Source: Candidatus Poribacteria bacterium (GTDB lineage Bacteria > Poribacteria > WGA-4E > WGA-3G). Taken from it: a stretch of 64,000 nt of DNA. Within the stretch, counting starts at the first letter, position 1. Each line of letters opens with the position of its first letter. This document shows, piece after piece, positions 6,667 through 60,390 of the stretch. The stretch lies in contig JAJECK010000016.1 in the NCBI GenBank assembly GCA_022822085.1, positions 5,786 through 69,785 on the forward strand, in the 5' to 3' direction. Below the pieces are notes generated by a model. The model did not search any database. It had not been told where the DNA came from and was given only the letters and a program-made list of their open reading frames with translations. Position numbers and translations under genes: made by a program.

Positions 6667-6751
6667 AATCAATTAACTACGAAATTTAACGAACACCGAT
6701 ATGCGAAAACGGCATGATGTATACCCTTATCAAATTATCAAATCACTTTTC

Positions 6752-6780
6752 TTGCTACATAGGTCCTCGCGTGGTATAAT
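6752..6780 (+). promoter_or_regulatory. Sigma70-type promoter with extended -10, upstream of higB
   Basis: TTGCTA (6752-6757), a 17-nt spacer, then TGG-TATAAT (-10 at 6775-6780). It lies ~130 nt upstream of the higB ATG. Confidence 0.5.
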
Positions 6781-6910
6781 ATTAACGGTTTTGAGATGCG
6801 GATCTAATAAGATGGCGTAATTTTATCTTCACAGTGTCTACGGATCCTTTACTGGTATCCTAAGAATAGATGTAGACCTTAATATAACAAATACACTACA
6901 CGACTCTTTT

Positions 6911-7231
6911 ATGCAAATTGTTAGAGAAAATGAGTTGGCGAAATTTGCAGAGCAACATCCGAATACTCGCGCATCCCTCAACCATTGGGCGCAATTAATG
7001 AGAGAAGGAAGTTTCAAGTCAATTATTGACTTGCGAGAAACGTTCGGACGCGTTTCCCCGGTGAAGGTACGACCCAGAAGATTTAATCGTGATTCAATAA
7101 CATTAACAGTTTTCAACATTAGTGGCAACGATGCCCGTCTTATTGCAATTGTCCAATACTCGATGCAAACTGTGATTATTGATCAAGTGCTAACGCACAG
7201 CGAATACGATGCAGGAGATTGGAGAAAGTGA
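6911..7231 (+). CDS. higB: Type II toxin, HigB family (RelE-fold mRNA interferase, HigB_toxin type)
   Basis: 106 aa. ..LAKFAEQHPNTRASLNHWAQLMREGSFKSIIDLRETFG....TVFNISGNDARLIAIVQYSMQTVIIDQVLTHSEYDAGDW matches the remembered HigB pattern (...W....A.W.SP.D.K......S.....VFNI.GN.YRLI..I.Y....V.I..V.TH.EYD). Confidence 0.8.
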   Translation: MQIVRENELAKFAEQHPNTRASLNHWAQLMREGSFKSIIDLRETFGRVSPVKVRPRRFNRDSITLTVFNISGNDARLIAIVQYSMQTVIIDQVLTHSEYDAGDWRK

Positions 7232-7234
7232 CCT

Positions 7235-25220: not shown

Positions 25221-26114
25221 TCAAGTTGAAAGGGATACTTGTTCTTTAGCATGATAGGAACTACGCACCAGAGGTCCTGATTCAACATGTCGAAAACCCA
25301 TTTCTAAACCTGCCTCTTTCAGTTCATCAAATTCTTCAGGGGTGTAGTATCGTTGTATAGGAAGGTGACGTGCGGAAGGAGAGAGATACTGTCCGATTGT
25401 CAGAATATCGCACCCAGTTTCGCTGATGTCTTGCATGGTTTCCAAAAGTTCAACCACTGTTTCCCCCAAACCTACCATAAGTCCTGATTTTGTCAGTATG
25501 TTAGGTTTCAGTTTCTTACCCATTTTAAGGAGTGTCAGTGTTTGTTGATAATTTGCGTAGGGACGGGCGCGTCGGTAGAGACGTTCCACTGTTTCTGTAT
25601 TGTGATTGAGCACCTCAGGTTCTGCCTTGACAATTACCTCAAGTGCCTGCCAATTCCCCTCTAAATCAGGAATAAGCACTTCAATGGTACAATTTGGTCG
25701 TTGTTGACGTGCCGCATAGATGCAGTCTGCAAAAATGGATGCACCACCATCTGGCAAGTCATCACGATTGACTGATGTAATGACTACATGATTTAACTTC
25801 AAGTGTGCAACCGCTTCGCCAAGTCGTCTCGGTTCATCAGAATCTACACTATCGGGATTTCCTTTTTTCACTGCACAGAACATACATCGACGTGTGCACA
25901 CATCGCCTAAAATCATAAATGTTGCAGTGCGACTGTTCCAGCATTCACCAATGTTTGGACAACGCGCCTCTTCACAGACAGTATGTAGTTGTAAATCTCG
26001 CATGAGTTTTTTTAACTCTGTGTAGTTATTACCACTGGGAATACGTGCCTTGATCCATGATGGGTGTCTGCGTTTAGAAGAATTTGAGGTTACAATTGTG
26101 AGGGGTTTCATCAT
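25221..26114 (-). CDS. lipA: Lipoyl synthase
   Basis: Cys clusters CEEARCPNIGECW and the radical-SAM motif CTRRCMFCAV. The track ORF extends to 26216 but would then read through the tRNA-Sec gene. The Met-Met at 26114/26111 is the likely start. Confidence 0.9.
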   Translation of the reverse strand: MMKPLTIVTSNSSKRRHPSWIKARIPSGNNYTELKKLMRDLQLHTVCEEARCPNIGECWNSRTATFMILGDVCTRRCMFCAVKKGNPDSVDSDEPRRLGEAVAHLKLNHVVITSVNRDDLPDGGASIFADCIYAARQQRPNCTIEVLIPDLEGNWQALEVIVKAEPEVLNHNTETVERLYRRARPYANYQQTLTLLKMGKKLKPNILTKSGLMVGLGETVVELLETMQDISETGCDILTIGQYLSPSARHLPIQRYYTPEEFDELKEAGLEMGFRHVESGPLVRSSYHAKEQVSLST

Positions 26115-26140
26115 TTTGGTTTCCAATCTCACTTGGAAAA

Positions 26141-26234
26141 TGGCGGGAGAGGGTGGGAATCGAACCCACCTATCCACTTGCATGGACAAGCCGGTTTTGA
26201 AGACCGGTAGAGCCACCAGACCCTATCCTCCCCC
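26141..26234 (-). tRNA. selC: tRNA-Sec (anticodon UCA), 94 nt, CCA encoded
   Basis: Folded by hand as GGGGGAGG-AT-AGGGTC-TGGT-GGCTCT-A-CCGGT-CTTCAAA-ACCGG-[21-nt variable arm CTTGTCCATGCAAGTGGATAG]-GTGGG-TTCGATT-CCCAC-CCTCTCCC-G-CCA. The 8-bp acceptor plus 5-bp T stem, 6-bp D stem with 4-nt loop, long variable arm and UCA anticodon are the bacterial tRNA-Sec hallmarks. It lies 35 nt downstream of selB. Confidence 0.9.
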
Positions 26235-26268
26235 ATAAGTTAGACAAAGAGAATTGCAGCCATAGATT

Positions 26269-28203
26269 TTATTTTTGTCTGGATGACAATCTGCGGACAT
26301 TTCCATCTCTGATGGTAACGTTTTGTGTGTCACAATACTCAAGAAAAGGCACTGCATATTTCCGAGATGTCTGAGCCAATTCCCGAAATTCTGCAACTGT
26401 AATTGTTTCATTGTTTTGTAGATAATTGGTTAATGACTCTTTCATGTCTTCATAGACTTTTTTGTGAATAAAATAGTTATCCGCTGCCTTGATAAACTGA
26501 CCCAGATTCAATAATGCATAAAACGTGGACTCAATCACTTGTGGTGTGTATTCTGACAGTAGCGTATTCAGTTCATTTAGACTGGGAGTGTTAATCCCAG
26601 CATTGAGAAATAAATCCTCTAACGTTTCTTTTGCAGTTGACTCTTCTTCAGAGAATTGTATTTCATGGGATGCTAATCGTAGGAGATTTCCATCCTTGAC
26701 TATCTGTTTTGTTTTTATGAGTTGGTCAGTCATTTTTTCAAAAGCCACCTCATCAAGTCCGAGTTCATGCCTTAATTGTGAGCTGTTTTGACCGGCGAGG
26801 AGCGGTTGTGATCCATGAAACTCTGATAACGCTGCTAACAATCTTTCTGTAACGTCTGTGGTGCGGGCAGCATCAGAAACAAGTGGCGTTCTGACAGATT
26901 TATCCCAACGAACAATTTTGCCTTCAGATTCCAAGGAGTTTAATATGTTCTTTACTTCAGATTGTGAATAAGGTAAATAGTAATATAGGAAGGATTCTTG
27001 GACGCATAGTGTCGGGCTGTTTTCCAATAATGCATTGACTACCTGCGTGTCATCAGCTTCTTCCCATTGTGCTAATGTGTTGATAGTTTCTTGAGTAAAC
27101 CGTTTGTGTTTGGGTGCAAATGGATTAATGACTTCTCCGCCTCCTACAGTATACTGTGCTGAAAAATCTCGTAGTATGATTCTATCTCCTCTGAAGGTCA
27201 AAATTGGCTGTTCTAAGCGAAGTTGGACTTGCACTTTATCGCCCGGGAGAATTGCTTCGTCAACCAACAGAATCAATCTACAAAAAATTTCACGTGTTCC
27301 AAGATATGCACGGAAACGCCCCCAATGTTCAAGCATCCTTGGAAATGAAGATAAAACTTGTAGCGAGATGTCAATATTGTCTGTAACATTTGAGAATTCT
27401 ATAGGACATAGAACATCGCCGCGTTGTATTTCCTGATCCGTTGTACCAGAAAGATTAAGTGCAGTTCTTTGTCCGGCATGTGCCACATTCGCGGGTTCGT
27501 TATGCACTTGTATCCCCCGAACACGGACAGTATCACCTTGTGGTAGAATTACCATCCGCTGATCTTTATTGACTGAACCACCAATAAGTGTTCCTGTAAC
27601 AACAACACCAAAACCTTCCACTTTAAATACACGATCAACATACAATCTCGGTATTCCATCATGGACTTGTGCTTCATTTGCAAGGTCTACCTGTTTGACA
27701 ATCGTCTGTTTTAAGGACTCAATTCCGTCCCCAGTGATGGAAGATACACTCACTGATGGGATACCTTCCAGTGAAGTGCCAACGAGCATCTCCTGTGTCA
27801 TTTCTGTTGCTTCTTCCAATTCATCAGGCGATGCCAAATCTGACTTTGTCATGACAAGAATGCCATTTGAGATGTTGAGCAGATCTAATATAGCTAAGTG
27901 TTCAAGTGTCTGTTCTTGTACGCCCTCTTTTGCATCAACGACAAAAAGGACAACATCCATCCCATAAGCACCCGACAACATATTACGAATAAATTTCTCA
28001 TGGCCAGGAACATCAACAATCCCCGCGCGTGAATTATCTGGTAAGTCAAAATATGCAAAACCTAACTCAATGGATAAACCGCGTTCTCGTTCCTCTTTAA
28101 GTCTGTCAGTTTGAATGCCTGTGAGAGCACCTACCAGAGCAGTTTTTCCATGGTCTACATGTCCTGCAGTGCCGATGATAAGATGTCGTCTGTCTTGCTG
28201 CAT
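26269..28203 (-). CDS. selB: Selenocysteine-specific translation elongation factor
   Basis: LIIGTAGHVDHGKTALVGALTGIQTDRLKEERERGLSIELGFAYF, DVPGHEKF, and a long winged-helix C-terminal extension. The likely start is the ATG at 28203, overlapping the lepB stop (TGATG). The track's longer start at 28284 overlaps lepB. Confidence 0.9.
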   Translation of the reverse strand: MQQDRRHLIIGTAGHVDHGKTALVGALTGIQTDRLKEERERGLSIELGFAYFDLPDNSRAGIVDVPGHEKFIRNMLSGAYGMDVVLFVVDAKEGVQEQTLEHLAILDLLNISNGILVMTKSDLASPDELEEATEMTQEMLVGTSLEGIPSVSVSSITGDGIESLKQTIVKQVDLANEAQVHDGIPRLYVDRVFKVEGFGVVVTGTLIGGSVNKDQRMVILPQGDTVRVRGIQVHNEPANVAHAGQRTALNLSGTTDQEIQRGDVLCPIEFSNVTDNIDISLQVLSSFPRMLEHWGRFRAYLGTREIFCRLILLVDEAILPGDKVQVQLRLEQPILTFRGDRIILRDFSAQYTVGGGEVINPFAPKHKRFTQETINTLAQWEEADDTQVVNALLENSPTLCVQESFLYYYLPYSQSEVKNILNSLESEGKIVRWDKSVRTPLVSDAARTTDVTERLLAALSEFHGSQPLLAGQNSSQLRHELGLDEVAFEKMTDQLIKTKQIVKDGNLLRLASHEIQFSEEESTAKETLEDLFLNAGINTPSLNELNTLLSEYTPQVIESTFYALLNLGQFIKAADNYFIHKKVYEDMKESLTNYLQNNETITVAEFRELAQTSRKYAVPFLEYCDTQNVTIRDGNVRRLSSRQK

Positions 28204-28982
28204 CAGTTGAGTCCATCTTCTGTGTGGATGAGTTTGCCTATACGGTTGAAGCGTATATTGCGGATCATCTTCCACACCTCCCATATTTTGGGTTTAGCTT
28301 GTCCAAATGACCAATATACCATGAACGCTTGCCCTTTGATACGATCAATGTGCACAGGTCCCCAAGTTCTGCTGTCACTGCTTTGATTTCGGTTATCTCC
28401 CATCGCAAAGACATGTTCTTCTGGTACAACAAACGGCTTGCCATCGGGAAATTGGCGTTTAAACTGATTCTCTGTCAAGGTATAATCCGCGTATAACTGA
28501 TTATCCCTCATATAGTCTTCCGTTTTACTAAACGGTGGGAAATCACCCCGTCTGCCATAATGACCACCTACGTACTTAGTATAACCACTATCGTTAACCT
28601 CTATACCGTTGACATAGAGTTTCCTGCCTTCCGTGTGAACAGTATCACCTTCTACTGCCACAATACGTTTGATGAAGTTGCGATCAGTTTCATGGGGAGG
28701 GATGAATACAAAAACGTCACCACGCGCAGGTTTATGAAACTCAAAGACTCTAATGTCCGTACCAGGAATCTTGAAACCGTAAATAAACTTGCAAACCAGA
28801 ATCCTATCTCCGATGAGCAGAGTATCCTCCATTGAACCTGATGGGATTTTAAATGCTTCGACAACAAAAGGTCGTATGAATCCAAAAACAAGTATGAGTG
28901 CAACTGCAATGACTTGGGTATATTCCCAGACGACCGTTTGGCGGAATTTCTGCCATTTTGTTAATTGAACATCAGTGGTCAT
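28203..28982 (-). CDS. lepB: Signal peptidase I
   Basis: One N-terminal TM segment. Catalytic-Ser box IPSGSMEDTL, the Lys box FIKRIVAVEGD, and GDNRNQSSDSR. Confidence 0.9.
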   Translation of the reverse strand: MTTDVQLTKWQKFRQTVVWEYTQVIAVALILVFGFIRPFVVEAFKIPSGSMEDTLLIGDRILVCKFIYGFKIPGTDIRVFEFHKPARGDVFVFIPPHETDRNFIKRIVAVEGDTVHTEGRKLYVNGIEVNDSGYTKYVGGHYGRRGDFPPFSKTEDYMRDNQLYADYTLTENQFKRQFPDGKPFVVPEEHVFAMGDNRNQSSDSRTWGPVHIDRIKGQAFMVYWSFGQAKPKIWEVWKMIRNIRFNRIGKLIHTEDGLN

Positions 28983-29073
28983 GTAGTTTGAAAACCGCTA
29001 TTATTAGACGGTAGTCCTTTCTTATTTTTAAAGTTATATTTTCAAATTCTTAACGGATACGTTTTCCTATACG

Positions 29074-29101
29074 ATTAGAACGAATATCATCATCATTGTC
29101 A
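29074..29101 (-). promoter_or_regulatory. Candidate sigma70-type promoter for lepB-selB (minus strand), inside the palindrome TTGTCAATTGACAA
   Basis: On the minus strand: TTGACA (29101-29096), a 16-nt spacer, then TCTAAT (29079-29074). It lies ~90 nt upstream of the lepB start. Confidence 0.35.
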
Positions 29102-29281
29102 ATTGACAAGTATATCATAAAACTGCGTTATAACAGTGTCCCTCAAGAATTACTTACCTTAGACAACCAAGAATCCAACTCCATTGTAGGGTATCGCTGA
29201 TAATTTGACACCTATGATGCGTTTACAAAACGACCTACCGCATGTAGTGGAATACAAAATTGAGACCTATAGAATCAAGAA

Positions 29282-30844
29282 TCAATCAAGACCTTTCAAT
29301 GCACTTATTATGCTGGAAGTAGCGACCCTTGAATACGCAGAATCCAGAGATTTCCATCCAATCGTTCCGTCTGTCTTAATGATATAGACAGAAGGTCGTG
29401 CAAGATTGGAATTATTTTGAGATACAACGTTGTAAGCTCCGATTGCATCTTTGCCGGTATCAGATAGCACAGTGAACGTGAGATTATTATCGTCGGTTGT
29501 CGATTTAGTGGCGGTGATGTTATCGACGCTGATAGCAATGAGCGATCCGCCTGCTGCTATAATATTATCATAGTTGTCTTGCAACTCTCCGAGTTGCGTT
29601 TGACACCACGGTCACCAGCCACCTCGGAAAAACACAATTACTATTTTACTGCTACCGATGCTGTCCGAAAGAGAGTGTGTGTTTCCATCACCATCTGGCA
29701 AAGAGAATGTAGGTGCTTTGACACCGATTCTTAAGCCTTCACCTGCTGCCAACGGTTCAGGTGCTGGTGCTGATTCGGTTGTGAAGGTGATACTCACATC
29801 GGTTTCGTTTCCAGTGCTGTCACGGACAGTACCCGATATTTGATATGTAGTACCGTGGTTGAGTTCTTGGCCAGCATTTGCTGTAAGGGTGATGGTATTC
29901 CCCGAAATCGTTGCTGTCCAACCAACATCTGATCCGTCTTTGTACAACTTCAGAACTCCACTGCTAATCGGTTCGCTGAAGGTAACCGTGATGCCATTTT
30001 CTGAAACTGTTTCCGGGTCAACGTCTTTAGCACCGTCAGCAGTACTACTGGTTGTGACATTAGGCGAGGTATTATCTTCTGCCATAACGTTATAGTTCAG
30101 TGTGTGGCTTCCGCTACCATTTGTCCACGAAATTGTCAGCGTAAGCGAACCGACAGGGAAAGGACCGCTTATAGTTCGTGAGTTACCAGAACCTGAGACT
30201 GTCCCAAAACTCACTGTTACGGTACCTGGGTCGTTATCAAATGTGATTGTGATACTATCGTTTTCCGATATGTCCCCACTTGCGGGTGACGCACTGACAA
30301 ATGCTGCATCAGGTATTTGGGGTACAACAGGGGGACTCTCAACGTTATAGTTCAGTGTATGGCTTCCGCTGCCATTTGGCCACGAAATTACCAAGGCAAG
30401 CGAACCAACAGAGAAAGGACCGCTTATAGTCCGTGAGTTACCAGAACCTGAGACTGTCCCAGAACTCACTGTTACGTCACCTGGGTCGTTGTCAAATGTG
30501 ATTGTGATACTATCGTTTTCCTTTATATTTCCGCTTGCGGGTGACGCACTGACAAATGCTGCGTCGGGTATTTGGGGTTCATCAGGGGGATCCTCTTCCA
30601 TCGTTTCAGGCTCATCAGAAGACTCCTCTTCTGAATCATCAGTTTCAGTAGAGGGGTCTTCCTTTGTACCATCGGTCTCAGTAGAGGGATCCTTCATCGT
30701 ACCTACTGATGTAACTGTGGAATCCTCTGGCGGAGTTTCATCGTCGGGCATCATAACAGGTTTCATCACCTGATTTTGCATTTCATCACATCCAGCAGCA
30801 AATATAATTAAGAATGTGATTGATATTATAGACAAAATTTTCAT
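29282..30844 (-). CDS. Lipoprotein selenoprotein: Ig-like repeats plus a C-terminal AhpC/TSA-redoxin (thioredoxin-fold) domain with a U-x-x-C active site; in-frame UGA at 29614..29612
   Basis: Track ORFs 29612..30892 and 29282..29584 share one frame (29614-29584=30) and are separated only by TGA. Read-through gives ..APTFSLPDGDGNTHSLSDSIGSSKIVIVFFRGGW-U-PWCQTQLGELQDNYDNIIAAGGSLIAISVD..LTFTVLSDTGKDAIGAYNV... The stop would otherwise cut the fold at its CxxC-type motif. A SECIS-like hairpin lies 14 nt downstream, and selB/selC are adjacent. The likely start is the Met at 30844 (MKILSIISITFLIIFAAGC lipobox). Confidence 0.8.
29581..29597 (-). promoter_or_regulatory. Candidate bacterial SECIS hairpin
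   Basis: Minus-strand RNA GCAACUC-GGA-GAGUUGC forms a perfect 7-bp stem. It starts 14 nt after the UGA, and its G-containing apical loop lies ~24 nt from the UGA. Confidence 0.6.
30086..30580 (-). repeat. Tandem 255-bp (85-aa) duplication inside the selenoprotein gene, encoding two Ig-like modules
   Basis: AACGTTATAGTTCAGTGT... starts at both 30086 and 30341. The protein copies are PQIPDAAFVSASPASG[ND]I[KS]ENDSITITFDNDPG.VTVS.GTVSGSGNSRTISGPF.VGSL.L.ISW.NGSGSHTLNYNV. Confidence 0.9.
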
Positions 30845-30872
30845 TACATATTCCCTATATATACGCTTTATT

Positions 30873-31576
30873 TTAGCGGATTTTTTTACCAATTCTATTA
30901 AAACGGATGTTTGTCACTAACTTCCAAACTTCCCATAACTTCATCGGTCGATTTGCAGTAGACCACAAGACCATGAATGCTTGTCCTTTGATATCGTCCA
31001 CCTCAACAGGTCCCCAAGTTCGACTATCACTACTCAGGTCTCGGTTATCTCCCATAGCGAATACCATTCCCTTTGGCACTATAAACGGCTTATCTTCAGG
31101 AAATTTATGTCTAAGAAGATATTCAGAACTACGAAAGGGTGGAAAATCCTGCCTATATTTATCGGTTGGTAGATGTTTTGTATAGTTTCCTTCCTCAACC
31201 TTGTCCCCATTTACATATAGATATTTACCCTTTGTATAGACTGTATCGCCTTCAACAGCAACAATCCGTTTGATAAAGTGAAGTTCTCTCTCATGCGGTG
31301 GGATAAAAACAAACACATCTCCACGAGCAGGTTTATGAAAATCGAAAACCTTTATATCAGTACCGGGGATTTTAAATCCATACATAAACTTACACACCAA
31401 AATCCGATCACCGATAAGGAGTGTATCTTCCATTGAACCTGATGGAATCAGATACGCATCAACAATAAATGGACGAAAAAACCCAAAAACGAATATTAGA
31501 ACGAAAACAATCCCTTAATCTGATGCAATTTTGTTAATATTGTTCTGGTTTGTTGTTGTATTTGATCGAATTTCAT
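30873..31576 (-). pseudogene. lepB: Second signal peptidase I copy, interrupted by a 1-nt frameshift near 31512-31515 (pseudogene or homopolymer sequencing error)
   Basis: Track ORF 30873..31433 starts at the Met inside the catalytic box. Upstream in the same frame I read GIVFVLIFVFGFFRPFIVDAYLIPSGSM, preceded by TAA. A different frame carries MKFDQIQQQTRTILTKLHQIKG from the ATG at 31576. Together these align with the lepB1 N-terminus (..VIAVALILVFGFIRPFVVEAFKIPSGSMEDTLLIGDRILVCKF). Confidence 0.7.
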
Positions 31577-31605
31577 AATGATACCAAAGGATGAGTAGAA
31601 TCCAC

Positions 31606-33228
31606 CTAAAATCTTTTAATTTCACCCCATAAGGTAGTAACTTTGTCTTGAGGTTTTATACTATATCTAATTTGTGAATTAGTTATTAATTTTGGATCTC
31701 CTATTGCTGGATGATCACACCAAGCTGTATCTAAACCACTATCAATAACAATTCTCAATACTTTCGCATCAAATGGTATAAAAAAACTGATTTTCTCATA
31801 ATTGTCTTTACCAGTTAACAGCTCAGATTTATACATATTTTCTCCATCAATTTCAAATGTAAATTTACAACTACCACCTACAAAGCAACTTTTATTCTGA
31901 TGTTTATCTATCTCAAAATCTCTATCATTAGTTATTCCAATATACCCTTCAAAAGCAATGTAGTTATTCCCTACTAAATTATATTTAAGAGATGAGACTT
32001 TGGGATGATCGGGTGGAGATAGTGAAATACCTCTTTCAAAAGTAGTATTTCTCATTACAATAGGATTCCCATTATTGGTTTTATTATCTGAAATAGCCTG
32101 CCATCCCCAACCATTTTTATATTCACCTGAAGAATTAAACGGTTTCAATCCATTTTCATCAGGTAAAGTCTTTTTACCTAAATTAATGTTAAGATATACA
32201 ACATTTTTTGAAGTGTCTTCTTTAATCGTTGTTGGTTCTAAATCTTCCTCAAGTCCCAAATCTTCATTTTTATTGCGGACAGAAGTTTGTTCATCAACAA
32301 CTTCCTCTTTAAATCTTGGGGGCATAGTAAAATCGTATCTATGGAAAGTAAAAGCACCTAAAGTATCCATAATCATAAAGGTTAGAAGGTTTTTTCCTAT
32401 GAGTTTACTTCTACTTATTCTCATATCTACATTAGTATTTTTGCCATCGATATATTGCCAACCTATTACCAATATATTACTGTCCATAACGACAATTTGG
32501 TATAGATCGTTTTGGCTCGTAATGTTAATTTTGATACTGATTATATTATCTTCTATTTCTTCAACATTAAATACTTGATTTACCTTCGGATGTTGCCATT
32601 TTATTATTCTGTCAGCATTAAAAAAATAGTGTTTATCTAACCATCTTGCTTCATACTCTAATAGTTCTTGACCTGATCCCATTATTGTATTCGTTGTTCC
32701 AGTATGATACAAACTAAATGTATGCCCTATTTCATGTGCAATTAAACTAACCATAGATGTATTTGCATTTTCCGCAACTATACACGAACCACCAAAATTA
32801 AAATTATATACAGGCCATCCAACACCCCATTGACAACATCCTTGATTCAAATTAATTGTGTCAATACCACCAATAATAAAAACATGTACATTCTTTTGAT
32901 CTTCAAATTTTTCTGGTATTTCTGTCTTTAAATTATCCCAAGTGTTAGATTGGTATATATGAGATGGACGGTTAGTATTAATTACATTTACTCTTATATT
33001 CCCGTTATGTTCTCTTTCAAATTTGAAAGTCTTATTTCCAAAACCGTTTCTAGACATTTCTTCCATATATAATTGCTGAACATCATTCATCCATCCTCTA
33101 ATTTTATTGAATGGGACATTCTGCACATTATTTGGCTTAACATAAATTGTTTTTACTAAATAATTGGCATTAGCAGATATTGATACTAATATTAAGAGTA
33201 TAGTTAAAAGTAACCTAAATTTTTTCAT
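31606..33228 (-). CDS. Secreted zinc metalloprotease-like protein (HExxH...H) with a C-terminal beta-sandwich (carbohydrate-binding-like) region
   Basis: Signal peptide MKKFRLLLTILLILVSISANA. HEIGHTFSLYH is metzincin-like spacing with Ser in place of Gly. The gene is visibly more AT-rich than its neighbours, and the protein is rich in N/I/K. It ends in DKVTTLWGEIKRF. Confidence 0.55.
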   Translation of the reverse strand: MKKFRLLLTILLILVSISANANYLVKTIYVKPNNVQNVPFNKIRGWMNDVQQLYMEEMSRNGFGNKTFKFEREHNGNIRVNVINTNRPSHIYQSNTWDNLKTEIPEKFEDQKNVHVFIIGGIDTINLNQGCCQWGVGWPVYNFNFGGSCIVAENANTSMVSLIAHEIGHTFSLYHTGTTNTIMGSGQELLEYEARWLDKHYFFNADRIIKWQHPKVNQVFNVEEIEDNIISIKINITSQNDLYQIVVMDSNILVIGWQYIDGKNTNVDMRISRSKLIGKNLLTFMIMDTLGAFTFHRYDFTMPPRFKEEVVDEQTSVRNKNEDLGLEEDLEPTTIKEDTSKNVVYLNINLGKKTLPDENGLKPFNSSGEYKNGWGWQAISDNKTNNGNPIVMRNTTFERGISLSPPDHPKVSSLKYNLVGNNYIAFEGYIGITNDRDFEIDKHQNKSCFVGGSCKFTFEIDGENMYKSELLTGKDNYEKISFFIPFDAKVLRIVIDSGLDTAWCDHPAIGDPKLITNSQIRYSIKPQDKVTTLWGEIKRF

Positions 33229-33457: not shown

Positions 33458-34897
33458 CTATCTCCGTTTCAAATCTGCCCATCGGACCAATCGTTTTCCA
33501 TGATGGGATACAGATAGAGGGTCTTCTTTCTTCTGTTCCTGCTCATTTTGTTCCTGTTCAACTACCTCTTGTTCAACTTCTTCCTGCTCATCTACTTGGT
33601 CAGCTACATCACGTTTTCCCATGCCTTCAGCAGGACTATTTGGTTGCAATGTAAAATCACCAGCATCTGCATTCACAAACAGAGGGTCTTCATCTATGTT
33701 GTCCTTATAACTTAAAAATTTCTGTCTGCCATCAGGATCAATTCCCATAAGACCATTTTTAATATTGCATGAATGAATGGATACAGATCCCTGGGCAAAT
33801 ACTTCAGCGTATGTCCCATCAGAAGTATTATCCCACACGATTGAATTGGTCATGTTGAGATGACCTCGGTCAGCGACATAGATACCACCGCCCCTATTTC
33901 CTGCAGAGTTTTGTGTAATTGTACAATACTTGACATACGCATTGCCAAATCTTGTAAGATCCCATATACCTCCGCCATTCTCCAAAGCGGTATTGTTTGC
34001 AATCACACAATCCGTGGCATATAATGACGAAGTTGGACTACAGAATATACCACCACCATCTTCCGCTGTATTCTTATCTATAATTGAATTTTTAATCGTT
34101 ATTCTGGAATAGTCTTGACATATTAAACCACCGTCAGAGTTTTCAGTGATGTGACTATTTGTTATATCCGCTCCAGCAAAAGAAAGGAGACTTATACCTC
34201 GTCTACCGTTATTTGATACAGTACAATTAACTATATCTGCACTTTCAAGCACGCAGGAAATCCCATTACTTGTGTTGTCAGAAATTGCACAATTCTTTAT
34301 AGTCGGTCTTACCAAGGTTTCAACCATATTAACATTATCCTGAATAACGCCATCCCGTTTAAGGGTTAAAAGTACATCAATTCCTCCAATGAGTATACCT
34401 ACACCAATATTACTTGAGATTTTGGTATCTGTAATGTTTAGAGCGGAATTAAGACTATATATCCCAGATGTCAGATTATCTTTAACCACACAATTTTTAA
34501 TCGTAGGTGAAGCAGAAATAAGAGTAATTGCTCCACCAAATACATGCTTCCCATTTTTAACTGTGAATCCGTCTAATACCGATGCATCTGTTTCATCATT
34601 TTGGAAACTGAATCCTCTGGTTTCTGTCTTCTCCTCACAGTCGATTATCGTTGTCTCAGCACCATTCCGGGATTTAAGAATTATCTCTTTTCCCTTAAAA
34701 TCAAGGTTCACATTTCCTTCGCCTTTGTAAATTCCATCATCTACCAAAACTGTGTCACCATTTTGAGCGGTATCAATACCGGCTTGAATTGTCGGTTGAT
34801 CTGCAGGCACATTGATCGTAGCTGCAAAGGTAAGTGGACTTAATGTAGAAAAACATACAATAATGATTGAATAGATAAGCCTTCTAATTTGTTCCAT
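33458..34897 (-). CDS. Secreted right-handed parallel beta-helix repeat protein (paralogue 1)
   Basis: Signal peptide ...LSPLTFA. Repeated ..N..GGGI../..NT...GG.. beta-helix rungs. The N-terminal ~80 aa are nearly identical to the next gene. An acidic insertion (EQEEVEQEVVEQEQNEQEQKKE) precedes the tail GKRLVRWADLKRR. Confidence 0.7.
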   Translation of the reverse strand: MEQIRRLIYSIIIVCFSTLSPLTFAATINVPADQPTIQAGIDTAQNGDTVLVDDGIYKGEGNVNLDFKGKEIILKSRNGAETTIIDCEEKTETRGFSFQNDETDASVLDGFTVKNGKHVFGGAITLISASPTIKNCVVKDNLTSGIYSLNSALNITDTKISSNIGVGILIGGIDVLLTLKRDGVIQDNVNMVETLVRPTIKNCAISDNTSNGISCVLESADIVNCTVSNNGRRGISLLSFAGADITNSHITENSDGGLICQDYSRITIKNSIIDKNTAEDGGGIFCSPTSSLYATDCVIANNTALENGGGIWDLTRFGNAYVKYCTITQNSAGNRGGGIYVADRGHLNMTNSIVWDNTSDGTYAEVFAQGSVSIHSCNIKNGLMGIDPDGRQKFLSYKDNIDEDPLFVNADAGDFTLQPNSPAEGMGKRDVADQVDEQEEVEQEVVEQEQNEQEQKKEDPLSVSHHGKRLVRWADLKRR

Positions 34898-35043
34898 GAT
34901 TTTTCTCCTATGGATAAGTATATTCTACTGTTTTTATTATTAAAACTACAAAGTGGATTATGTCTAAACCCATAACTGAGTTCCATCATAAGATTTGTTG
35001 GGACAATACAGCTATTTATTCATTGAAAGTTCCAAATGTTATG

Positions 35044-36417
35044 TTATTTACGTTTTAAATCTGCCCACAAGACAATTCGTTTTCCAGGTTGTGATACAGC
35101 AAATGGACCAATCCGAGCAGTTTGTTCACGCGCACCCATTCCTTCGGCTGGACTATTTGGCTGAAGTGTAAAATCACCAGCGTCTGTATTAACAAACAGA
35201 GGGTCTTCATCAATGTTTTTCACATAGATAAACTTGTCCCCATCAGCAACCAGGCCAATCCCATCAAGCCCATCACCAATATCACATGATTTAATGACTA
35301 TACCCCTACCCAGAACGAAAACTTCTGCATGCGAAACATTTGATGAATTTCCCCAAACTATAGAATCGGTTAAGTTAAAGCGATTTCTGGGGATAATAGG
35401 ATCTCTGTGGGCAATAGCAGAAATCCCACCACCAAGAGTGCCAGCTGTGTTTTCCGTAATTGTACAACGCTTGATATTTACCGCTCCTAAGATCGCCTCA
35501 CACCGAATCCCTCCACCAGAGTATATTGCCCTATTTTGTGCAATTACACAGTCAGTAACCCAAATCTCTGAGTTATAATTACAGCGAATTCCGCCACCAT
35601 TTCTGGCTGTATTCCGTACAATGATCGAATTCTCAATTTTCAAAACAGTATCTTCCCAAGCTTCTAAGCCGCTACCAGCATTGTGTTCTATTCGACAATT
35701 GGTAATAGGTTTGTTTGTGCGGGCATAAGAGTAAAAAATACCGCGAGCACTGTTGTGAGAAACAACACACTTATCAATAATCGGATCTACATCGTGCATA
35801 CAGTAAACTCCATTCCCTGTATTCTCAGTAATCGTGCTATTTTTAAGTGTGGGTTGTGCTGGAGTTTCTTTCAAGACAACGCCTTTATGTTCGGTATTTC
35901 CCATAATGAAAATACCGCCACCAAAATTGCGTGTAATTGTGCAGTCTGTTATGATTAGATCGGAATTATGGCAAAAGATTCCACCACCACCGCCACCCAT
36001 AGATTGGTTACTGTCAATCGTACAGTTTTTAATTGTCGGTGAAGCATGCACAAGGTAGATTCCACCGCCAAATCTCTGGTTCCCATTTTTAATTGTAAAT
36101 CCATCTAACACCGATTCAACTGTTTCATCATTTTGAAAACTAAATCCTCTGGTTTCAAGTTTTTTCTCACAGTCAATAATCGTTGCCTGAGCACCATTGC
36201 GAGATTTAAGAGTTATTCGTTTTCCCTTAAAATCCAGATTCACATTTCCTTCGCCTTTGTAGATACCATCATCTACTAATACGGTGTCACTATTTTGAGC
36301 GGTGTCAATGCCAGCTTGAATTGTCGGTTGATCAGCAGGGACATTGATCGTTGCTGCAAAAGTAAGCGGACTGAAAAAGGAAACCAATACGATGCATAAT
36401 GTATTGATATACTTCAT
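35044..36417 (-). CDS. Secreted right-handed parallel beta-helix repeat protein (paralogue 2)
   Basis: MKYINTLCIVLVSFFSPLTFAATINVPADQPTIQAGIDTAQN... The start is taken at the Met at 36417, because the track start at 36525 overlaps lepA. PbH1-like rungs. It ends in GKRIVLWADLKRK. Confidence 0.7.
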   Translation of the reverse strand: MKYINTLCIVLVSFFSPLTFAATINVPADQPTIQAGIDTAQNSDTVLVDDGIYKGEGNVNLDFKGKRITLKSRNGAQATIIDCEKKLETRGFSFQNDETVESVLDGFTIKNGNQRFGGGIYLVHASPTIKNCTIDSNQSMGGGGGGIFCHNSDLIITDCTITRNFGGGIFIMGNTEHKGVVLKETPAQPTLKNSTITENTGNGVYCMHDVDPIIDKCVVSHNSARGIFYSYARTNKPITNCRIEHNAGSGLEAWEDTVLKIENSIIVRNTARNGGGIRCNYNSEIWVTDCVIAQNRAIYSGGGIRCEAILGAVNIKRCTITENTAGTLGGGISAIAHRDPIIPRNRFNLTDSIVWGNSSNVSHAEVFVLGRGIVIKSCDIGDGLDGIGLVADGDKFIYVKNIDEDPLFVNTDAGDFTLQPNSPAEGMGAREQTARIGPFAVSQPGKRIVLWADLKRK

Positions 36418-36466
36418 GATTGTCCTCCTATAAAATGGATTAGTCCTTATATCTGATATATGTATG

Positions 36467-38272
36467 TTACTCATCCGTTGCAAGCATTGCTGTGAATGCT
36501 TCTTGCGGTACATCAACATTCCCAATCTGTTTGAGACGCTTTTTACCTTCCTTCTGCCTTTCTAACAATTTCCGTTTTCTTGTAATATCACCACCGTAGC
36601 ATTTTGCAGTCACATTTTTTCGTAGGGGTCTGACCGACTCACGCGCAACAATCTTAGTCCCAATCGCAGCTTGAATTGGTATTTCAAACATCTGTCTGGG
36701 TATCAACTCTTTCAGTTTAGACACTAAACTTTTCCCACGGTCTTCAGCCATTTCGCGTGGCAGGATAGTTGATAGCGCGTCTACAGGTTTTCCCATCAAA
36801 AGCACATCTAACTTAACCAGTTTCTCTGGTCTATATTCCCCGATATCATATTCAAGTGAAGCATATCCGCGGGTGAGCGACTTTAATTTTGGGTAAAAAT
36901 CTACAAGCATCTCACTAAGCGGTAAATCATAAAGGAGTTGCACACGGCTAACATCTAATTGGTTCATCCGTTTATATACACCCCGTCGCTTCTGACAAAG
37001 TTCCATCGCATTTCCGATATATTCCCGCGGAACGATTATATCAATATTGACATACGGTTCTTCTATTCGTTCTATGTTTTGGACTTCAGGCAGATGTGCC
37101 GGATTGTCCACTAACACATCATCACCTGATTTGAGAAAAACCCGATACATCACACTGGGGGCAGTCCGAACAAGCGAGAGCTCAAATTCCCTTTCAAGAC
37201 GTTCATGGACAATTTCCATGTGTAGCAGCCCTAAGAAGCCGCATCGAAACCCGAACCCAAGGGCAACAGATGTCTCCGGTTCAAAAGTGAAAGAGGAATC
37301 ATTGAGACGTAGTTTTTCCAGTGCTTCCCTAAGTGCATGAAATTGGTTTGTATCCGCAGGATACAGACCACTAAATACAAGCGGCTTTATCTCTTGATAG
37401 CCTGGAAGTGGTGTGGACGTAGGATGCAGATGATGCGTAATCGTATCGCCAATTTTAGCATTGTTAATGTCGCGAATACCTGCAATTAGATATCCGACCG
37501 CACCTGTTTTGAGTTCCGTAGTGGGCTGCATCTGTGGCGTAAAAATACCGACTTCTTCAACTTCATAAGACCGTTTGGTCTGCATGAGTTGAATCTTATC
37601 ACCCGGGGCGATGCTACCGTCAAAAATACGAGTGTAAATAATCACACCACGATAATTATTGTAAATAGAATCAAGCACAAGTGCTTTTAAAGGGGCTGCA
37701 GAGTCGCCAGCAGGTGCGGGGATCCGTTGGACGATTGACTCTAAAATTGCTGGGATGCCCGTCCCTGCTTTCGCACTGACAAGAAGGGCATCCGCTGCAG
37801 GTAGACCTACCACCTCCTCTATCTGACGTTTGACTTCATCAGGTTGCGCAGCTGGCAGGTCAATTTTGTTAATTACAGGGATAATTTCCAGTTCATTTTC
37901 TATTGCAAGATAGGCGTTTGCCAAGGTTTGCGCTTCAACGCCTTGTGCTGCATCAACAATAAGGATAGCACCTTCACACGCCGCAAGACTTCGGGACACC
38001 TCATAAGTGAAATCTACATGTCCTGGTGTATCAATCAAATTGAGTTCATAGTCATTTTCATCCGCAGCACGATAATGGAGTTTGACCGCGGTAGCTTTTA
38101 TAGTGATACCGCGTTCCCGTTCCAAATCCATTAAATCCAGCACTTGTTCACGCATCTCCCTTTCAGCAAGCGTATTTGTCCGTTCTAAGAGGCGATCACT
38201 TAATGTGCTTTTGCCGTGGTCAATGTGTCCTAAAATACAGAAATTGCGAATATTATGAAGTGTAACTGACAT
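36467..38272 (-). CDS. lepA: Translation elongation factor 4
   Basis: [36 protein letters not shown], and a LepA-specific C-terminal domain. Size is 601 aa. Confidence 0.95.
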
Positions 38273-40470: not shown

Positions 40471-41577
40471 ATGCAAACAGACACCAAAATACTAACCGAA
40501 GAAGAAATCAGAAGGTTATTTAGAACGGATATTGGACATTTTGAAGATAAAAGTGCGAGATTACTTTTTAAACAGACAGAACACTTACGAGGTTTAGTGA
40601 TGTTCCTTGTAAGTAACATTGCAGAACATCTTGATTTCTCACAGGCAAAGGTAGAAAATCGGAGTTATATTGACAATTCATTACGAGATTTGATGTCGGA
40701 TATCGTGTTTTCTGTCCCGTTCCGAGACGACACTCAAACAGACGATCTGACAATCTACATCCTCATAGAACATCAGTCCACTGTAGATCGAATGATGGGT
40801 TTTCGGTTTCTCTCCTATATGTGTCAAATATGGAGAGATCAGTTACATGCGTTAGATAACGCGAAAGTGCCATTAAACCAGCAACGCTTGCGTCCGATAC
40901 TCCCGATTGTCTTTTATACTGGAGAAAGACCTTGGAAAATCCCGCTAACACTCAATGCAGTGATGGATCTACCTGAGATGATGACACCTTTCGTGCCAAC
41001 ATTTGAGACCCTCTTTTTCGGGGTCAAGGATACCGATATAGACGAGTTCGGACAACACAATCACCCTTTCGGATGGTTGATGGCGGTCACACAAAAGGCT
41101 GAATCGGATGATAAGTCGCTTGAGCAAACATTGGCAGAAGTTCTCAAAAGACTGGACACGTTATCACCCGAAGATGAAGCACTACACACTCACGCTATGG
41201 TCTATCTCTCTCATCTGATAATAGGTAAAAGACCAGATTCCGAGAATGACCATTTGATACAACTCATCATGACACATAATAAAGATACGGAGGTTGAAAG
41301 TATTATTATGACTGGTGCAGAAGCTCTTATACAACAAGGAAAGAAACAAGGTCTTGAACAAGGTCTTGAACAAGGTCTTGAACAAGGTAAAATAGACGAA
41401 AAACAGGCAGCCGTGCTTAGATTGATGCGGCTACGTTTTACGGAAGTTTCAGAAGCGGTTGTCAATGAGATAAATAGAATAGAAGACTTCTCGCTTCTTG
41501 ACACGCTTTTTGAAGAAGTTTTCAATGCTGAAACTATAGAGGACATTGTTCTGCCGAACAAAAATAACGGTGCATAA
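40471..41577 (+). CDS. Rpn-family recombination-promoting nuclease / putative transposase (PD-(D/E)XK, YhgA-like) with a DUF4351-like C-terminus
   Basis: ..LRDLMSDIVFSVPFRDD....TIYILIEHQSTVDRMMGFRFLSYMCQIWRD.. is the core of YhgA-like proteins. The C-terminal AAVLRLMRLRFTEVSEAVVNEINRIEDFSLLDTLFEE resembles DUF4351. A (QGLE)x3 insertion is encoded by a 12-bp tandem repeat at 41347-41388. Confidence 0.7.
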   Translation: MQTDTKILTEEEIRRLFRTDIGHFEDKSARLLFKQTEHLRGLVMFLVSNIAEHLDFSQAKVENRSYIDNSLRDLMSDIVFSVPFRDDTQTDDLTIYILIEHQSTVDRMMGFRFLSYMCQIWRDQLHALDNAKVPLNQQRLRPILPIVFYTGERPWKIPLTLNAVMDLPEMMTPFVPTFETLFFGVKDTDIDEFGQHNHPFGWLMAVTQKAESDDKSLEQTLAEVLKRLDTLSPEDEALHTHAMVYLSHLIIGKRPDSENDHLIQLIMTHNKDTEVESIIMTGAEALIQQGKKQGLEQGLEQGLEQGKIDEKQAAVLRLMRLRFTEVSEAVVNEINRIEDFSLLDTLFEEVFNAETIEDIVLPNKNNGA

Positions 41578-46827: not shown

Positions 46828-46864
46828 ACCCTCTCTCATATTGCTACAGAAAGGACATGCCCCA

Positions 46865-48809
46865 ATGTCAAAAGAAAAATTTGACAAAAAACTGATTGAC
46901 CTACTCGAATCCAACCCCGACTTTGTTGATGAAGCTGGAGAACTCCACCGTGCAAACGTCAGAGACCGTGCATGGAAACTGGACCACGACCTTATCAAAT
47001 TGCTGCTCACTGACAAAGAAATTGAAGCAAAATTCTTTAAAGAAATTGCAGGACGTTGGATTTTTGATAACAATACCTTCGTTGACTATATCACCGACAA
47101 AACCTTCTTTGCCGACTCCTATACCCAATTTCGTAACAAAATCGGTTTAAACATTGATGGAAAATATCTACGTGAACGAGGCGAGGTGGCACTTGTTTGG
47201 CCATACAAGGATTGTGTCTTAGAGGGTGGGCAAACGCGTGAAGAAGAAAAACGCAAAGAGATTTTCTTCAATGAAATCCTTGCACAAGACGAAATCAATC
47301 GGATGTTTGATCCGAAGGTGCTGACCAACTGGAAACGTCACACCGCTGCAGGTGAACAAGAGGTAACAGAAATTGAACGCGATGAGAACGGGACAATTCG
47401 CGAAAACCTCATCATCAAAGGCAACAACCTTATTGCACTCCATACCCTCAAAGAACAATTCCGCGGAAAGGTTAAACTGATTTACATTGACCCGCCGTAT
47501 AATACGGGTGGCGATCAAGAAACTTTTACCTACAACAATAATTTCAATCACTCAACTTGGTTAACTTTCATGAAAACCCGGCTAGAGGTATCAAGAAATC
47601 TACTGACAGATGATGGTTTCATAGCAGTTACTATTGATCATCACGAATTATTTTATTTGGGAACTTTGGCAGATGAGATATTTGGACGGGAAAACCGCAT
47701 AGGAATAGTGACCATCTACATCAATCCAAAAGGTAGGAATCTCGCTAAATTTTTTCTCTCCTGTGACCGAACACATGTTAGTATATACGAAGAATATATC
47801 TAAAGCAGAATTAAACAAGATAGCCTTAGACAAAGACAAAATAGAAAGTTTTGACAAACGCGACGAGGCAGGAAATTATCGCTTAGAACCATTCATGAGG
47901 GTAAGATCAAATACTTCACGAACTAATAAACCTAAATTTTGGTATCCTATTTACGTCAGTAAAGATTTGAAAGACATTACACTGACAAAAAAGAATAATT
48001 ACCATAAAGTTTTCCCCATTGATAACGATCGTGAATTTACATGGAAAACCAAGCCAGAGACATTTGAAAAACGAAATGTCGGTGACTACTTTGTTGCAGT
48101 TGAGCAGCAGGGGCAGATAATAATCTTGCACAAATACCGTGAGCAACAAGTGATAAAAAATTTGTGGATGGATAAGAAATATTTTCCTGAATTTCAAGGG
48201 ACAAACCTCCTAAAAAATTTATTAGGGAAAAATTTATTTAGCTATCCCAAGTCGCTGTATGCCGTGTTAGATACTTTGAAAATAATGACCAGTAATAACG
48301 ATATAATATTAGACTTCTTTGCTGGTTCGGGAACAACTGGGCATGCCGTATTAGAAATGAACAAACAGGATGGCGGTAAACGTCAGTTTATCCTCGTAGA
48401 GCAATTAGACGAACATATATCAGTTTGCAAAGAACGCCTTAAGAAAGTAACCGCACAAGAAGGTCTTCTGAGCGGAAATTTTGTCTCATGTGAACTCATG
48501 TCTTACAACGAAGTTTTTATGGAACGAATCCAATCCGCAGAATCAAGTGAAGAACTTTTAGATATCTGGCGCGATATGTCAAAAGATTCCGTACTGAATT
48601 GGTATGTTAAACCTCACAAACCGATGGAAGCAGAAGAACATTTTATCACTATCAATGACGTTGAGAAACAGAAGCAACTGTTAGCGGCGCTGCTGGATAA
48701 GAACCAATTGTATGTTCACCTCTCTGAAATAGAAGACGAAACGTTTAAGGTTAGTGAAGCAGATAAACTACTAAACAAAAATTTTTATAAAGGAGGCGAT
48801 GATGTCTGA
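46865..48809 (+). pseudogene. mod: Type III restriction-modification methyltransferase (Mod), split by a frameshift at a T6 tract (47750-47755)
   Basis: The first frame carries the catalytic motif LIYIDPPYNTGG and stops at 47803. The +1 frame continues ..FSPVTEHMLVYTKN... and carries the AdoMet motif ILDFFAGSGTTGHA. Deleting one T of the T6 tract gives NPKGRNLAKFFSPVTEHMLVYTKN in one continuous frame. Confidence 0.8.
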
Positions 48810-53884: not shown

Positions 53885-54092
53885 ATTTGTCTATTTTGAG
53901 TATTTGTAACGTTTTTCTATAAACATTGCGTCCCTACGGGACTGAAGAACTGGACTAAAAATCAAAATCCTTAAGTTGACACCCGCTGAATGCCAAAAAG
54001 GCATTCATAGCGTTGATTTATGGGTTTCGTGCCTCTACCCGACCCACAATATTAGAATGGACTATCCACTACTCGTCAAGGGAGTGTATAAT

Positions 54093-56042: not shown

Positions 56043-56099
56043 GTCAAATCATCTGATTTTCTCCAGATTTGAGAACTATAATAGAAGGAGATGAACATC

Positions 56100-58166: not shown

Positions 58167-58221
58167 GTCAAATCATCTGATTTTTTCAGATTTGAGAACT
58201 ATAATAGAAGGAGATGGACAA

Positions 58222-60333: not shown

Positions 60334-60390
60334 GTCAAGATCATCTGATATTTTCCAGATTTGAAACAATAATAAAAGGAGATGGACAAA

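Follow-up and report, generated by a model that had tools for sequence, protein, structure and literature searches.

In this work, we analyse a 64,000-nucleotide stretch of DNA, hereafter the window, from the sponge symbiont Candidatus Poribacteria bacterium (GenBank assembly GCA_022822085.1, contig JAJECK010000016.1, positions 5,786-69,785, forward strand), and focus on a minus-strand gene whose reading frame is interrupted by an in-frame TGA that we read as a selenocysteine (Sec, U) codon. The gene lies close to lepB, selB and the gene for tRNA-Sec, and its predicted product combines a lipoprotein signal peptide, an acidic linker, three immunoglobulin-like (Ig-like) modules and a C-terminal redox domain with the active site W-U-P-W-C (Table 1). 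An original prediction, made from the sequence alone, had called this an unannotated selenoprotein; the comparative sequence checks that it proposed all spoke for it, and we consider that call correct with high confidence.

One reading frame across an internal TGA

The list of open reading frames (ORFs) for the window splits the gene into two entries, 29612..30892 and 29282..29584, the second of which encodes 100 aa, has TTG as its only start and carries no domain of its own. That both belong to one frame, with the TGA inside a redox active site and no further stop between them, had been part of the original prediction and is borne out by codon reading, by translation and by the span of the Pfam match. 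Translated from the ATG at 30844..30842, the stretch down to 29282 comprises 521 codons, among which the TGA at 29614..29612 is the sole internal stop. The codons around it read ATA GTA ATT GTG TTT TTC CGA GGT GGC TGG TGA CCG TGG TGT CAA ACG and are followed by CAA CTC GGA GAG TTG CAA; the gene closes with CTT GAT TGA. With U replaced by Cys, the read-through product matches Pfam AhpC-TSA over positions 1-123 of the 124 in the profile (102.8 bits, gathering threshold 26), and also Redoxin. As the AhpC-TSA alignment bridges the TGA, a single domain runs through it.

We compared the window with 20 further loci, comprising 14 orthologous ones (seven from metagenome-assembled genomes titled Candidatus Poribacteria bacterium, seven from other assemblies) and six of distant relatives (L025-L030, which fall into four clusters at 31-49% identity, L029 and L030 carrying the same protein). 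TGA stands at the identical codon in all 20. Each of the 14 orthologous loci continues with P-x-C and then with conserved in-frame sequence, which in 12 of them reaches a normal stop after about 108 codons; with the distant relatives included, 18 of the 20 loci are open from the TGA to a normal stop (19 of 21 with the window), the exceptions being L019, which runs off its contig, and L021, which breaks near a contig end. Over the 107 codons past the TGA, the alignment contains no stop or frameshift, and in 91 pairwise comparisons with a mean synonymous divergence (dS) of 0.64, the ratio of non-synonymous to synonymous substitution rates (dN/dS) has its median at 0.43 and reaches at most 0.73. 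Thus, the stretch behind the TGA is translated, and purifying selection acts on it. Sequencing or assembly error is also excluded: although a single base separates TGA from TGC or TGT, 21 independent assemblies, produced in different projects and with different sequencing technologies, all have TGA.

If the TGA were a genuine stop, the locus would hold a split or decaying gene, that is, an Ig-repeat lipoprotein devoid of a catalytic site followed by a 100-aa remnant, left untranslated or translated separately, and this is how public protein calls present it. When the read-through product served as protein query, about 25 orthologues came up, of which nearly all end at the same residue (in ...FFRGNW, FYRGWW, FFRGNF, FFRGKF or FYRYRH; the exception, P0013, has an unrelated out-of-frame tail). 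With the redox domain alone as query, 22 orphan fragments of 99-108 aa were recovered, each starting just past the active site, so that every public call found for the gene family splits the gene. TGA is, in addition, a normal stop elsewhere in the window. Nevertheless, we consider a genuine stop extremely improbable, given that the TGA recurs exactly at the catalytic-Cys codon in 21 loci from several lineages, that the frame behind it stays open and constrained as described above, that the downstream piece has neither a start other than TTG nor a domain, and that a constrained hairpin lies at the distance expected of a selenocysteine insertion sequence (SECIS), with selB and tRNA-Sec nearby. 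The possibility of true termination in orthologues was checked, and each one examined keeps both the TGA and an open, conserved downstream frame.

Homologues with cysteine in place of Sec, which the original prediction had named as expected support, exist and align as anticipated. In 15 aligned Cys-type proteins the motif is FYRGGW-C-PYC, with its first Cys invariant opposite the UGA and its second Cys likewise invariant, and translated metagenome loci carry WCP[YF]C at the UGA position in six cases and other motifs in three more distant ones. A scan of Joint Genome Institute (JGI) metagenomes with the domain alignment as query returned only relatives at 30-39% identity, mostly of the Cys-type WCPxC, and no extra orthologues usable for covariation. 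With the post-UGA part as query, an exhaustive HMMER search yielded 320 relatives, and many of its top matches are fragments of about 100 aa that start directly after the motif. The two adjacent frames are one gene, in which the internal UGA almost certainly encodes Sec in a U-x-x-C site.

Table 1. Features of the selenoprotein gene and of the adjacent Sec-decoding genes, in window coordinates
Feature	Coordinates	Strand	Evidence or remark
Complete selenoprotein gene	30844..29282	-	520 codons + stop; Sec = codon 411
In-frame UGA, read as selenocysteine, residue 411	29614..29612	-	same codon in 21/21 loci, opposite invariant Cys
True stop of the selenoprotein gene, TGA	29284..29282	-	
Lipoprotein signal peptide, lipobox A-A-G-C, Cys19 then D-E-M-Q	30788..30844	-	pattern match
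Acidic (D/E/T/P-rich) disordered linker, about residues 20-92	30569..30787	-	pLDDT < 50 at residues 15-85
Two tandem 85-aa Ig-like/CopC-like beta-sandwich modules	30086..30590	-	TRF period 255, 2.0 copies, 90%
Big_5 bacterial Ig-like domain, residues 257-356	29777..30076	-	PF13205, E 2.8e-13, profile 1-105/105; pLDDT > 90
AhpC/TSA-fold redox domain, residues 373-497, active site W-U-P-W-C	29354..29728	-	PF00578, E 1.6e-29
Partner Cys of U-x-x-C, residue 414	29603..29605	-	invariant in all aligned homologues
Predicted tryptic peptide across the Sec site			GGW-U-PWCQTQLGELQDNYDNIIAAGGSLIAISVDNITATK
Predicted SECIS hairpin GCAACUC-GGA-GAGUUGC	29597..29581	-	7 bp, 3-nt loop, starts 14 nt past UGA
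lepB, signal peptidase I	28203..28982	-	Pfam Peptidase_S26, TIGR02227
selB, probable start ATG 28203..28201, 644 aa	26269..28203	-	TIGR00475 equivalog, 354.7 bits vs cut-off 242
tRNA-Sec (selC), anticodon UCA	26141..26234	-	ARAGORN; Rfam RF01852, 78.1 bits vs gathering 47

The hairpin behind the UGA and the Sec-decoding genes

The perfect hairpin that had been noted just past the UGA, at a spacing within the range reported for bacterial SECIS elements, turned out to be unique, constrained and in keeping with published rules. The window contains a single copy of it, and 100 shuffles yielded no match even when one mismatch was allowed. Its stem GCAACUC/GAGUUGC is identical in all 15 orthologues, and the loop is GGA, GGU, AGU, GUC or GUU, always with a G within the first two positions and then G or U. 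Where the loop encodes Ser, the codon is always AGU and never UCN, which keeps the G in the loop.

The stem is translated in the register xxG-CAA-CUC-nnn-GAG-UUG-Cxx, and we compared codon usage there with that of other downstream columns in which an invariant amino acid has a degenerate code (14 sequences). A single codon is used in 4/4 stem columns (Gln, Leu, Glu and Leu) as opposed to 3/22 elsewhere downstream (Fisher p = 0.0023), and the two six-fold degenerate Leu codons come from different codon families. At the first stem pair, the wobble base is G in 15/15 despite a varying amino acid (T, S, E, G, K or A).

Published rules for bacterial SECIS (bSECIS) elements give a loop of 3-9 nt, a stem of 4-16 bp, 16-37 nt from the UGA to the loop, a G in the first two loop positions, usually followed by G/U, and a minimum free energy of at most -7.5 kcal/mol (PMC13188914). 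Checked by hand, the hairpin has a loop of 3 nt, a stem of 7 bp, the sequence G[G/U] and 21 nt from UGA to loop, and its folding energy is -7.7 kcal/mol alone and -17.0 kcal/mol within 60 nt of window sequence; it falls within all four published rules, within two of them only just. A longer lower stem, which the window alone supports at -17 kcal/mol, was dropped because RNAalifold, run on 72 nt around the UGA, finds only the 7-bp hairpin to be shared.

The hairpin recurs in the same register in distant relatives, as GCAGCUC-GGN-GAGCUGC in L026 and L027, which amounts to a double change from A-U to G-C, and as a 6-bp version in L025, L029 and L030. In the alignment of 21 sequences, pairing holds for 98.6% of cells and drops to 16-49% when the partner strand is slid, and one pair is changed on both sides, in 2 of 20 distinct sequences. 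Suppressed synonymous change and the one double change speak for a constrained RNA; covariation alone is weak, and the frozen codon choice is the stronger argument for RNA constraint.

The presence of selB and tRNA-Sec 1-3 kb downstream on the same strand, also foreseen, is confirmed by TIGR00475, ARAGORN and Rfam. The longest ORF of selB reaches 28284, its product contains SelB winged-helix and beta-barrel domains (Pfam), and its equivalents in L022 and L023 likewise have 644 aa. The TGA stop of lepB overlaps the selB start codon (TGATG). Sec-containing hydrogenases have been reported from Poribacteria (PMC13582414), and PMC5649159 notes, in a passage that names no client protein, that the SelA and SelB COGs co-occur in most bins of sponge symbionts.

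Several observations weigh against reading the UGA as a SelB-dependent Sec codon in a functional redox gene. For a catalytic domain, a dN/dS of 0.43 points to rather relaxed constraint. The 3-nt loop is the consensus minimum, and -7.7 kcal/mol barely passes the threshold of -7.5 kcal/mol. Covariation is thin: the only compensatory pair is that of L026 and L027, and neither of its substitutions (CAA to CAG, TTG to CTG) alters the amino acid; the double change could also stem from a codon bias towards G/C endings in those organisms. The peptide encoded by the stem, Q-L-x-E-L-Q, is conserved even in the Cys homologue P0100, so part of the nucleotide conservation is protein-level. Finally, selA and selD are absent among the 38 ORFs of the 64-kb window that were scanned with Pfam.

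This last result would also suit a UGA that is read as Cys or Trp instead of Sec, either by near-cognate decoding or under a reassigned code. Near-cognate decoding of UGA occurs in bacteria. As to the code, TGA terminates the HigB toxin gene of the window, whose Pfam profile is complete (73/74 positions), as well as lepB and the selenoprotein gene itself, and it ends 6 of 36 long frames in the window; the stops of these three genes establish that the code is standard and exclude a reassigned one. Read-through as Cys or Trp also leaves the dedicated, intact selB and tRNA-Sec and the fit of the hairpin to the SelB-dependent consensus to be accounted for, and the retention of TGA over TGC/TGT in 21 diverged loci is sensible only under selection for Sec. 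We hold it to be very unlikely.

A predicted lipid-anchored stalk and a Prx-like redox domain

The N-terminal layout had been described as a lipobox AAGC, an acidic linker, two tandem 85-aa modules and a further Ig-like domain, and Tandem Repeats Finder (TRF), Pfam, AlphaFold and Foldseek agree with each of these parts. The predicted signal peptide ends in ...IIFAAG-C19-DEMQ, and a lipobox of the form [AV][AVT]GC is present in 25/25 orthologue N-termini, followed by DEM or, in one, by NEM. The AlphaFold model, which covers only the part upstream of the UGA, places a helix at residues 4-17 and models three beta-sandwich modules with a predicted local distance difference test (pLDDT) score > 90. 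Between these, the linker holds a 33-nt imperfect repeat (TRF period 33, 30637..30703). The two 85-aa modules give a weak Pfam CopC match and have all-beta secondary structure (pLDDT > 90), Foldseek matches the modules to PDB structures of tandem Ig and cadherin arrays, and a short Pro-rich linker joins Big_5 to the redox domain.

The number of modules differs between genomes. CopC-like modules are present in 1-6 copies across orthologues, and the whole unit of CopC-like and Big_5 domains is present three or four times in two genomes, so the stalk spans 2-8 modules across orthologues (three in the window). The architecture had seemed unfamiliar; this stands for the lipid-anchored Ig stalk, which is new, but the exported, stalked layout as such is not unique to this organism. 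The N-termini of the distant Sec relatives also carry signal peptides, mostly lipobox-like and some ordinary, with a pair of CarboxypepD_reg beta-sandwich domains preceding the redox domain in L029/L030 and a partial beta-rich N-terminal region in L025. In enterobacteria, an Asp at position +2 retains lipoproteins in the inner membrane. That rule may or may not extend to Poribacteria, and the protein could sit on the periplasmic face of the inner membrane or at the cell surface.

In the redox domain, Cys414 takes the place of the peroxidatic Cys in alignments to peroxiredoxins (Prx) and that of the second CPHC Cys in alignments to ResA. Against 2cx3, the BCP of A. pernix (HMMER E 6.5e-17), U is matched to the Ser of S-P-V-C and the Cys after it to the peroxidatic Cys, and against 3c71, the ResA of B. 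subtilis (HMMER E 1.9e-9), U-P-W-C falls exactly on C-P-H-C. The Prx signature P-x-x-x-T/S-x-x-C is not kept (F-F-R-G-G-W-U-P-W-C, with Pro replaced by Arg and Thr/Ser by Sec), and neither is the Prx catalytic Arg, whose nearest equivalent lies one residue away from the BCP position: most members of the Sec clade have an Arg near that position, L022 and L023 have Gln, L027 has Lys and the Cys homologues have none. Of the NCBIfam models for ResA, BCP, PrxQ, SelL-related proteins and PrxU, none matches the redox domain at its cut-off (for ResA, NF002854, 51.8 bits against 170), and we therefore do not use these names.

The motif and the family point instead to a known kind of selenoprotein. A Prx-like family in which a thioredoxin-like UXXC replaces TXXU was described in the Sargasso Sea selenoproteome (PMC1088965), 'Prx-like 1, pfam00578, UxxC' accounts for 225 Sec sequences in Global Ocean Sampling (GOS) data (PMC2398784), and a 2026 review lists a 'Prx-like thiol:disulfide oxidoreductase, PF00578, UxxC' (PMC13188914). 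The redox domain probably belongs to this kind, an assignment made by motif and Pfam family rather than against a published member sequence. The earlier label of 'AhpC/TSA-redoxin and TlpA-like' was right as to the fold, and the Prx-like UxxC type is the more exact description. With that family the gene shares PF00578, U-x-x-C, a marine origin, an in-coding SECIS just past the UGA and abundant Cys homologues; the papers on it report fusions to other domains, whereas a lipoprotein form or a fusion to Big_5 or CopC-like Ig domains does not appear in them.

The nearest full-length homologues are labelled 'peroxiredoxin-like family protein' or 'AhpC/TSA family protein'. Among the Cys-type proteins of the former name (about 216 aa, W-C-P-Y-C), examples from Rubricoccus marinus and Polaribacter (P0065, P0086) share 30-40% identity over the redox domain, FYRGGW-C-P-x-C and LTFTVLSD; they differ in having Cys for Sec, an N-terminal helical extension in place of signal peptide and stalk, and, past the central strand, about 23 inserted residues that are missing from the Sec form. 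ResA, TlpA and StoA share the thioredoxin-like fold, W-C-P-x-C residue for residue, a membrane tether and an outward-facing position (predicted in the present case), but the selenoprotein has a lipid anchor rather than a transmembrane (TM) helix, a long Ig stalk and Sec for Cys. It is not a ResA orthologue, given the NF002854 score far under the cut-off, and cytochrome-maturation genes are not adjacent to the selenoprotein gene in the window. BCP/PrxQ (2cx3) is the best solved sequence relative and has the same fold, but the selenoprotein keeps neither its signature nor its catalytic Arg.

The distant Sec relatives (L025-L030, together with the fragments P0091, P0093, P0106, P0108 and P0110) share the TGA codon, the 14-nt spacing and a stem of 6-7 bp, and their upstream frame encodes ...FYRGxW or a variant. 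They differ in having other stalk domains or a short Pro/Glu linker and a DUF362 gene downstream, which follows the Sec gene in L028, L029 (1140..4053) and L030. In L029, a second AhpC/TSA-thioredoxin-like gene precedes it, and the 184-aa gene that precedes it in L030, for which there is no Pfam record, may correspond. A further relative, P0096 (223 aa, 39% identity), has a signal-anchor-like N-terminus and the active site ...VFDHSGES-P-F-S...; with both redox residues replaced, it appears to be redox-dead.

The main functional rival is that the selenoprotein is a true envelope peroxidase, which would act on H2O2 or organic peroxides via a selenenic acid, and not a protein-disulfide oxidoreductase. 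Its best Pfam family is AhpC-TSA and its best solved relative a BCP thiol peroxidase, the Cys of UxxC sits on the peroxidatic Cys, and an Arg lies near the catalytic-Arg position in most of the Sec clade. Sec, moreover, reacts readily with peroxides. However, the loss of PxxxT/SxxC, the offset of the Arg together with its replacement or absence in other members, the exact superposition of UPWC on the CPHC of ResA and the class given in the literature, thiol:disulfide oxidoreductase (PMC13188914, PMC1088965), all argue the other way. We regard a peroxidase as unlikely, though it retains an appreciable chance of being right; homology suggests, as the most likely function of the domain, that of an extracytoplasmic selenol/thiol:disulfide oxidoreductase.

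Proposed mechanism, gene neighbourhood and significance

The best overall explanation of the locus, to which comparative sequence evidence leads us to assign a probability of roughly 0.87, is a 520-residue exported lipoprotein in which UGA codon 411 is decoded as Sec and an Ig stalk carries a Prx-like UxxC oxidoreductase. By the established scheme of bacterial Sec decoding, SelB-GTP-Sec-tRNA(Sec) would bind the hairpin and deliver Sec as the UGA enters the ribosomal A site. To judge from the lipobox, the product would then be exported and lipid-modified at Cys19, and sequence and structure model show the following layout from the anchor outward: a disordered acidic linker of about 70 residues, three Ig-like modules and the C-terminal W-U-P-W-C domain. 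By homology, Sec411 would occupy the position of the exposed N-terminal nucleophile of the thioredoxin/ResA CxxC and attack a disulfide of the substrate, or perhaps a peroxide or a sulfenic acid, Cys414 would resolve the intermediate into a selenylsulfide, and an envelope reductant would recycle it.

Six loci, the window included, share the gene order lepA, beta-helix proteins, lepB-like, selenoprotein gene, lepB, selB, tRNA-Sec and lipA, and the linkage of selenoprotein gene, lepB, selB and tRNA(Sec) is found in 6 of the 15 orthologous loci (window, L002, L004, L007, L022 and L023). A promoter and terminator scan of 26000..31700 gave counts at the level of shuffles and is uninformative on operon structure. 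In L020 (4144..7353) and L021 (1102..4451), the selenoprotein gene directly follows genes for a Rieske protein and cytochrome b, and lepB and selB do not flank it; this context may hint at a role in the maturation of respiratory complexes, recalling ResA/TlpA, or may be coincidence.

No ATG, GTG or TTG start precedes the catalytic SGSM motif in the lepB-like ORF upstream of the selenoprotein gene (30873..31517, minus strand): after an in-frame TAA (31517..31515), the sequence continues with GGG ATT GTT..., a TM-like stretch and PSGSMEDTL. The ORF either uses a rare ATT start or is an N-terminally decayed lepB duplicate; its counterpart is a 90-aa fragment in L023 and has 228 aa in L022. Between it and lepA lie two paralogous right-handed beta-helix (NosD/Pel9A-like) proteins (33458..36525, minus strand), of which L022 and L023 have two to three copies.

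Elsewhere in the window, the only substantial candidate for another in-frame-TGA gene, 6821..9112 (plus strand), was rejected: it consists of a HigB-like toxin ORF (6821..7231) that ends at a genuine TGA and, in the same frame, a 625-aa TPR protein (7235..9112). TPR proteins occupy 5122..9112, and four consecutive WD40 beta-propeller genes of about 700 aa each lie at 53976..62604 (plus strand); eukaryote-like repeat proteins are known from Poribacteria, to judge from the title of a publication. The window further contains a YhgA-like (Transposase_31) gene with a DUF4351 tail (40471..41577, plus strand) and a type III restriction-modification locus (46841..51408, plus strand), in which the methylase is apparently split into overlapping ORFs (46841..47803 and 47763..48809) ahead of the Res subunit (48799..51408).

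The selenoprotein kind is already known and common in marine metagenomes, and existing knowledge of Sec decoding itself is left unchanged. What is new is the assignment of a Prx-like UxxC selenoprotein to Candidatus Poribacteria, its lipoprotein and Ig-stalk architecture with a variable repeat number, a very simple, fixed-position SECIS common to distant exported relatives, and the repeated linkage of the selenoprotein gene to selB and tRNA-Sec. The outcome is a sound correction of the annotation that adds a concrete selenoprotein to Candidatus Poribacteria, with a modest architectural twist, and the exhaustive search indicates that many more fragments of about 100 aa in other lineages resemble split C-terminal parts. 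The hairpin, with 7 bp, a 3-nt loop and a 14-nt spacer, may serve as a compact SECIS model or search pattern. Because of the tight linkage to selB and tRNA(Sec), the gene is a candidate client of the Sec machinery of sponge symbionts.

A lipid-anchored, variable Ig stalk raises the question of where in the envelope a selenol-based oxidoreductase acts and on which substrate. We think it improbable, if conceivable, that the protein is a cell-surface selenoenzyme, anchored by its lipid and held on the Ig-like stalk, that neutralises host oxidants or reduces disulfides of host matrix or receptors. If this were true, it would be the first selenoprotein acting directly at the host-symbiont interface, with a stalk length that expanded or contracted between Poribacteria lineages, from two to eight modules, and it could help to explain the over-representation of Sec machinery in sponge symbionts.

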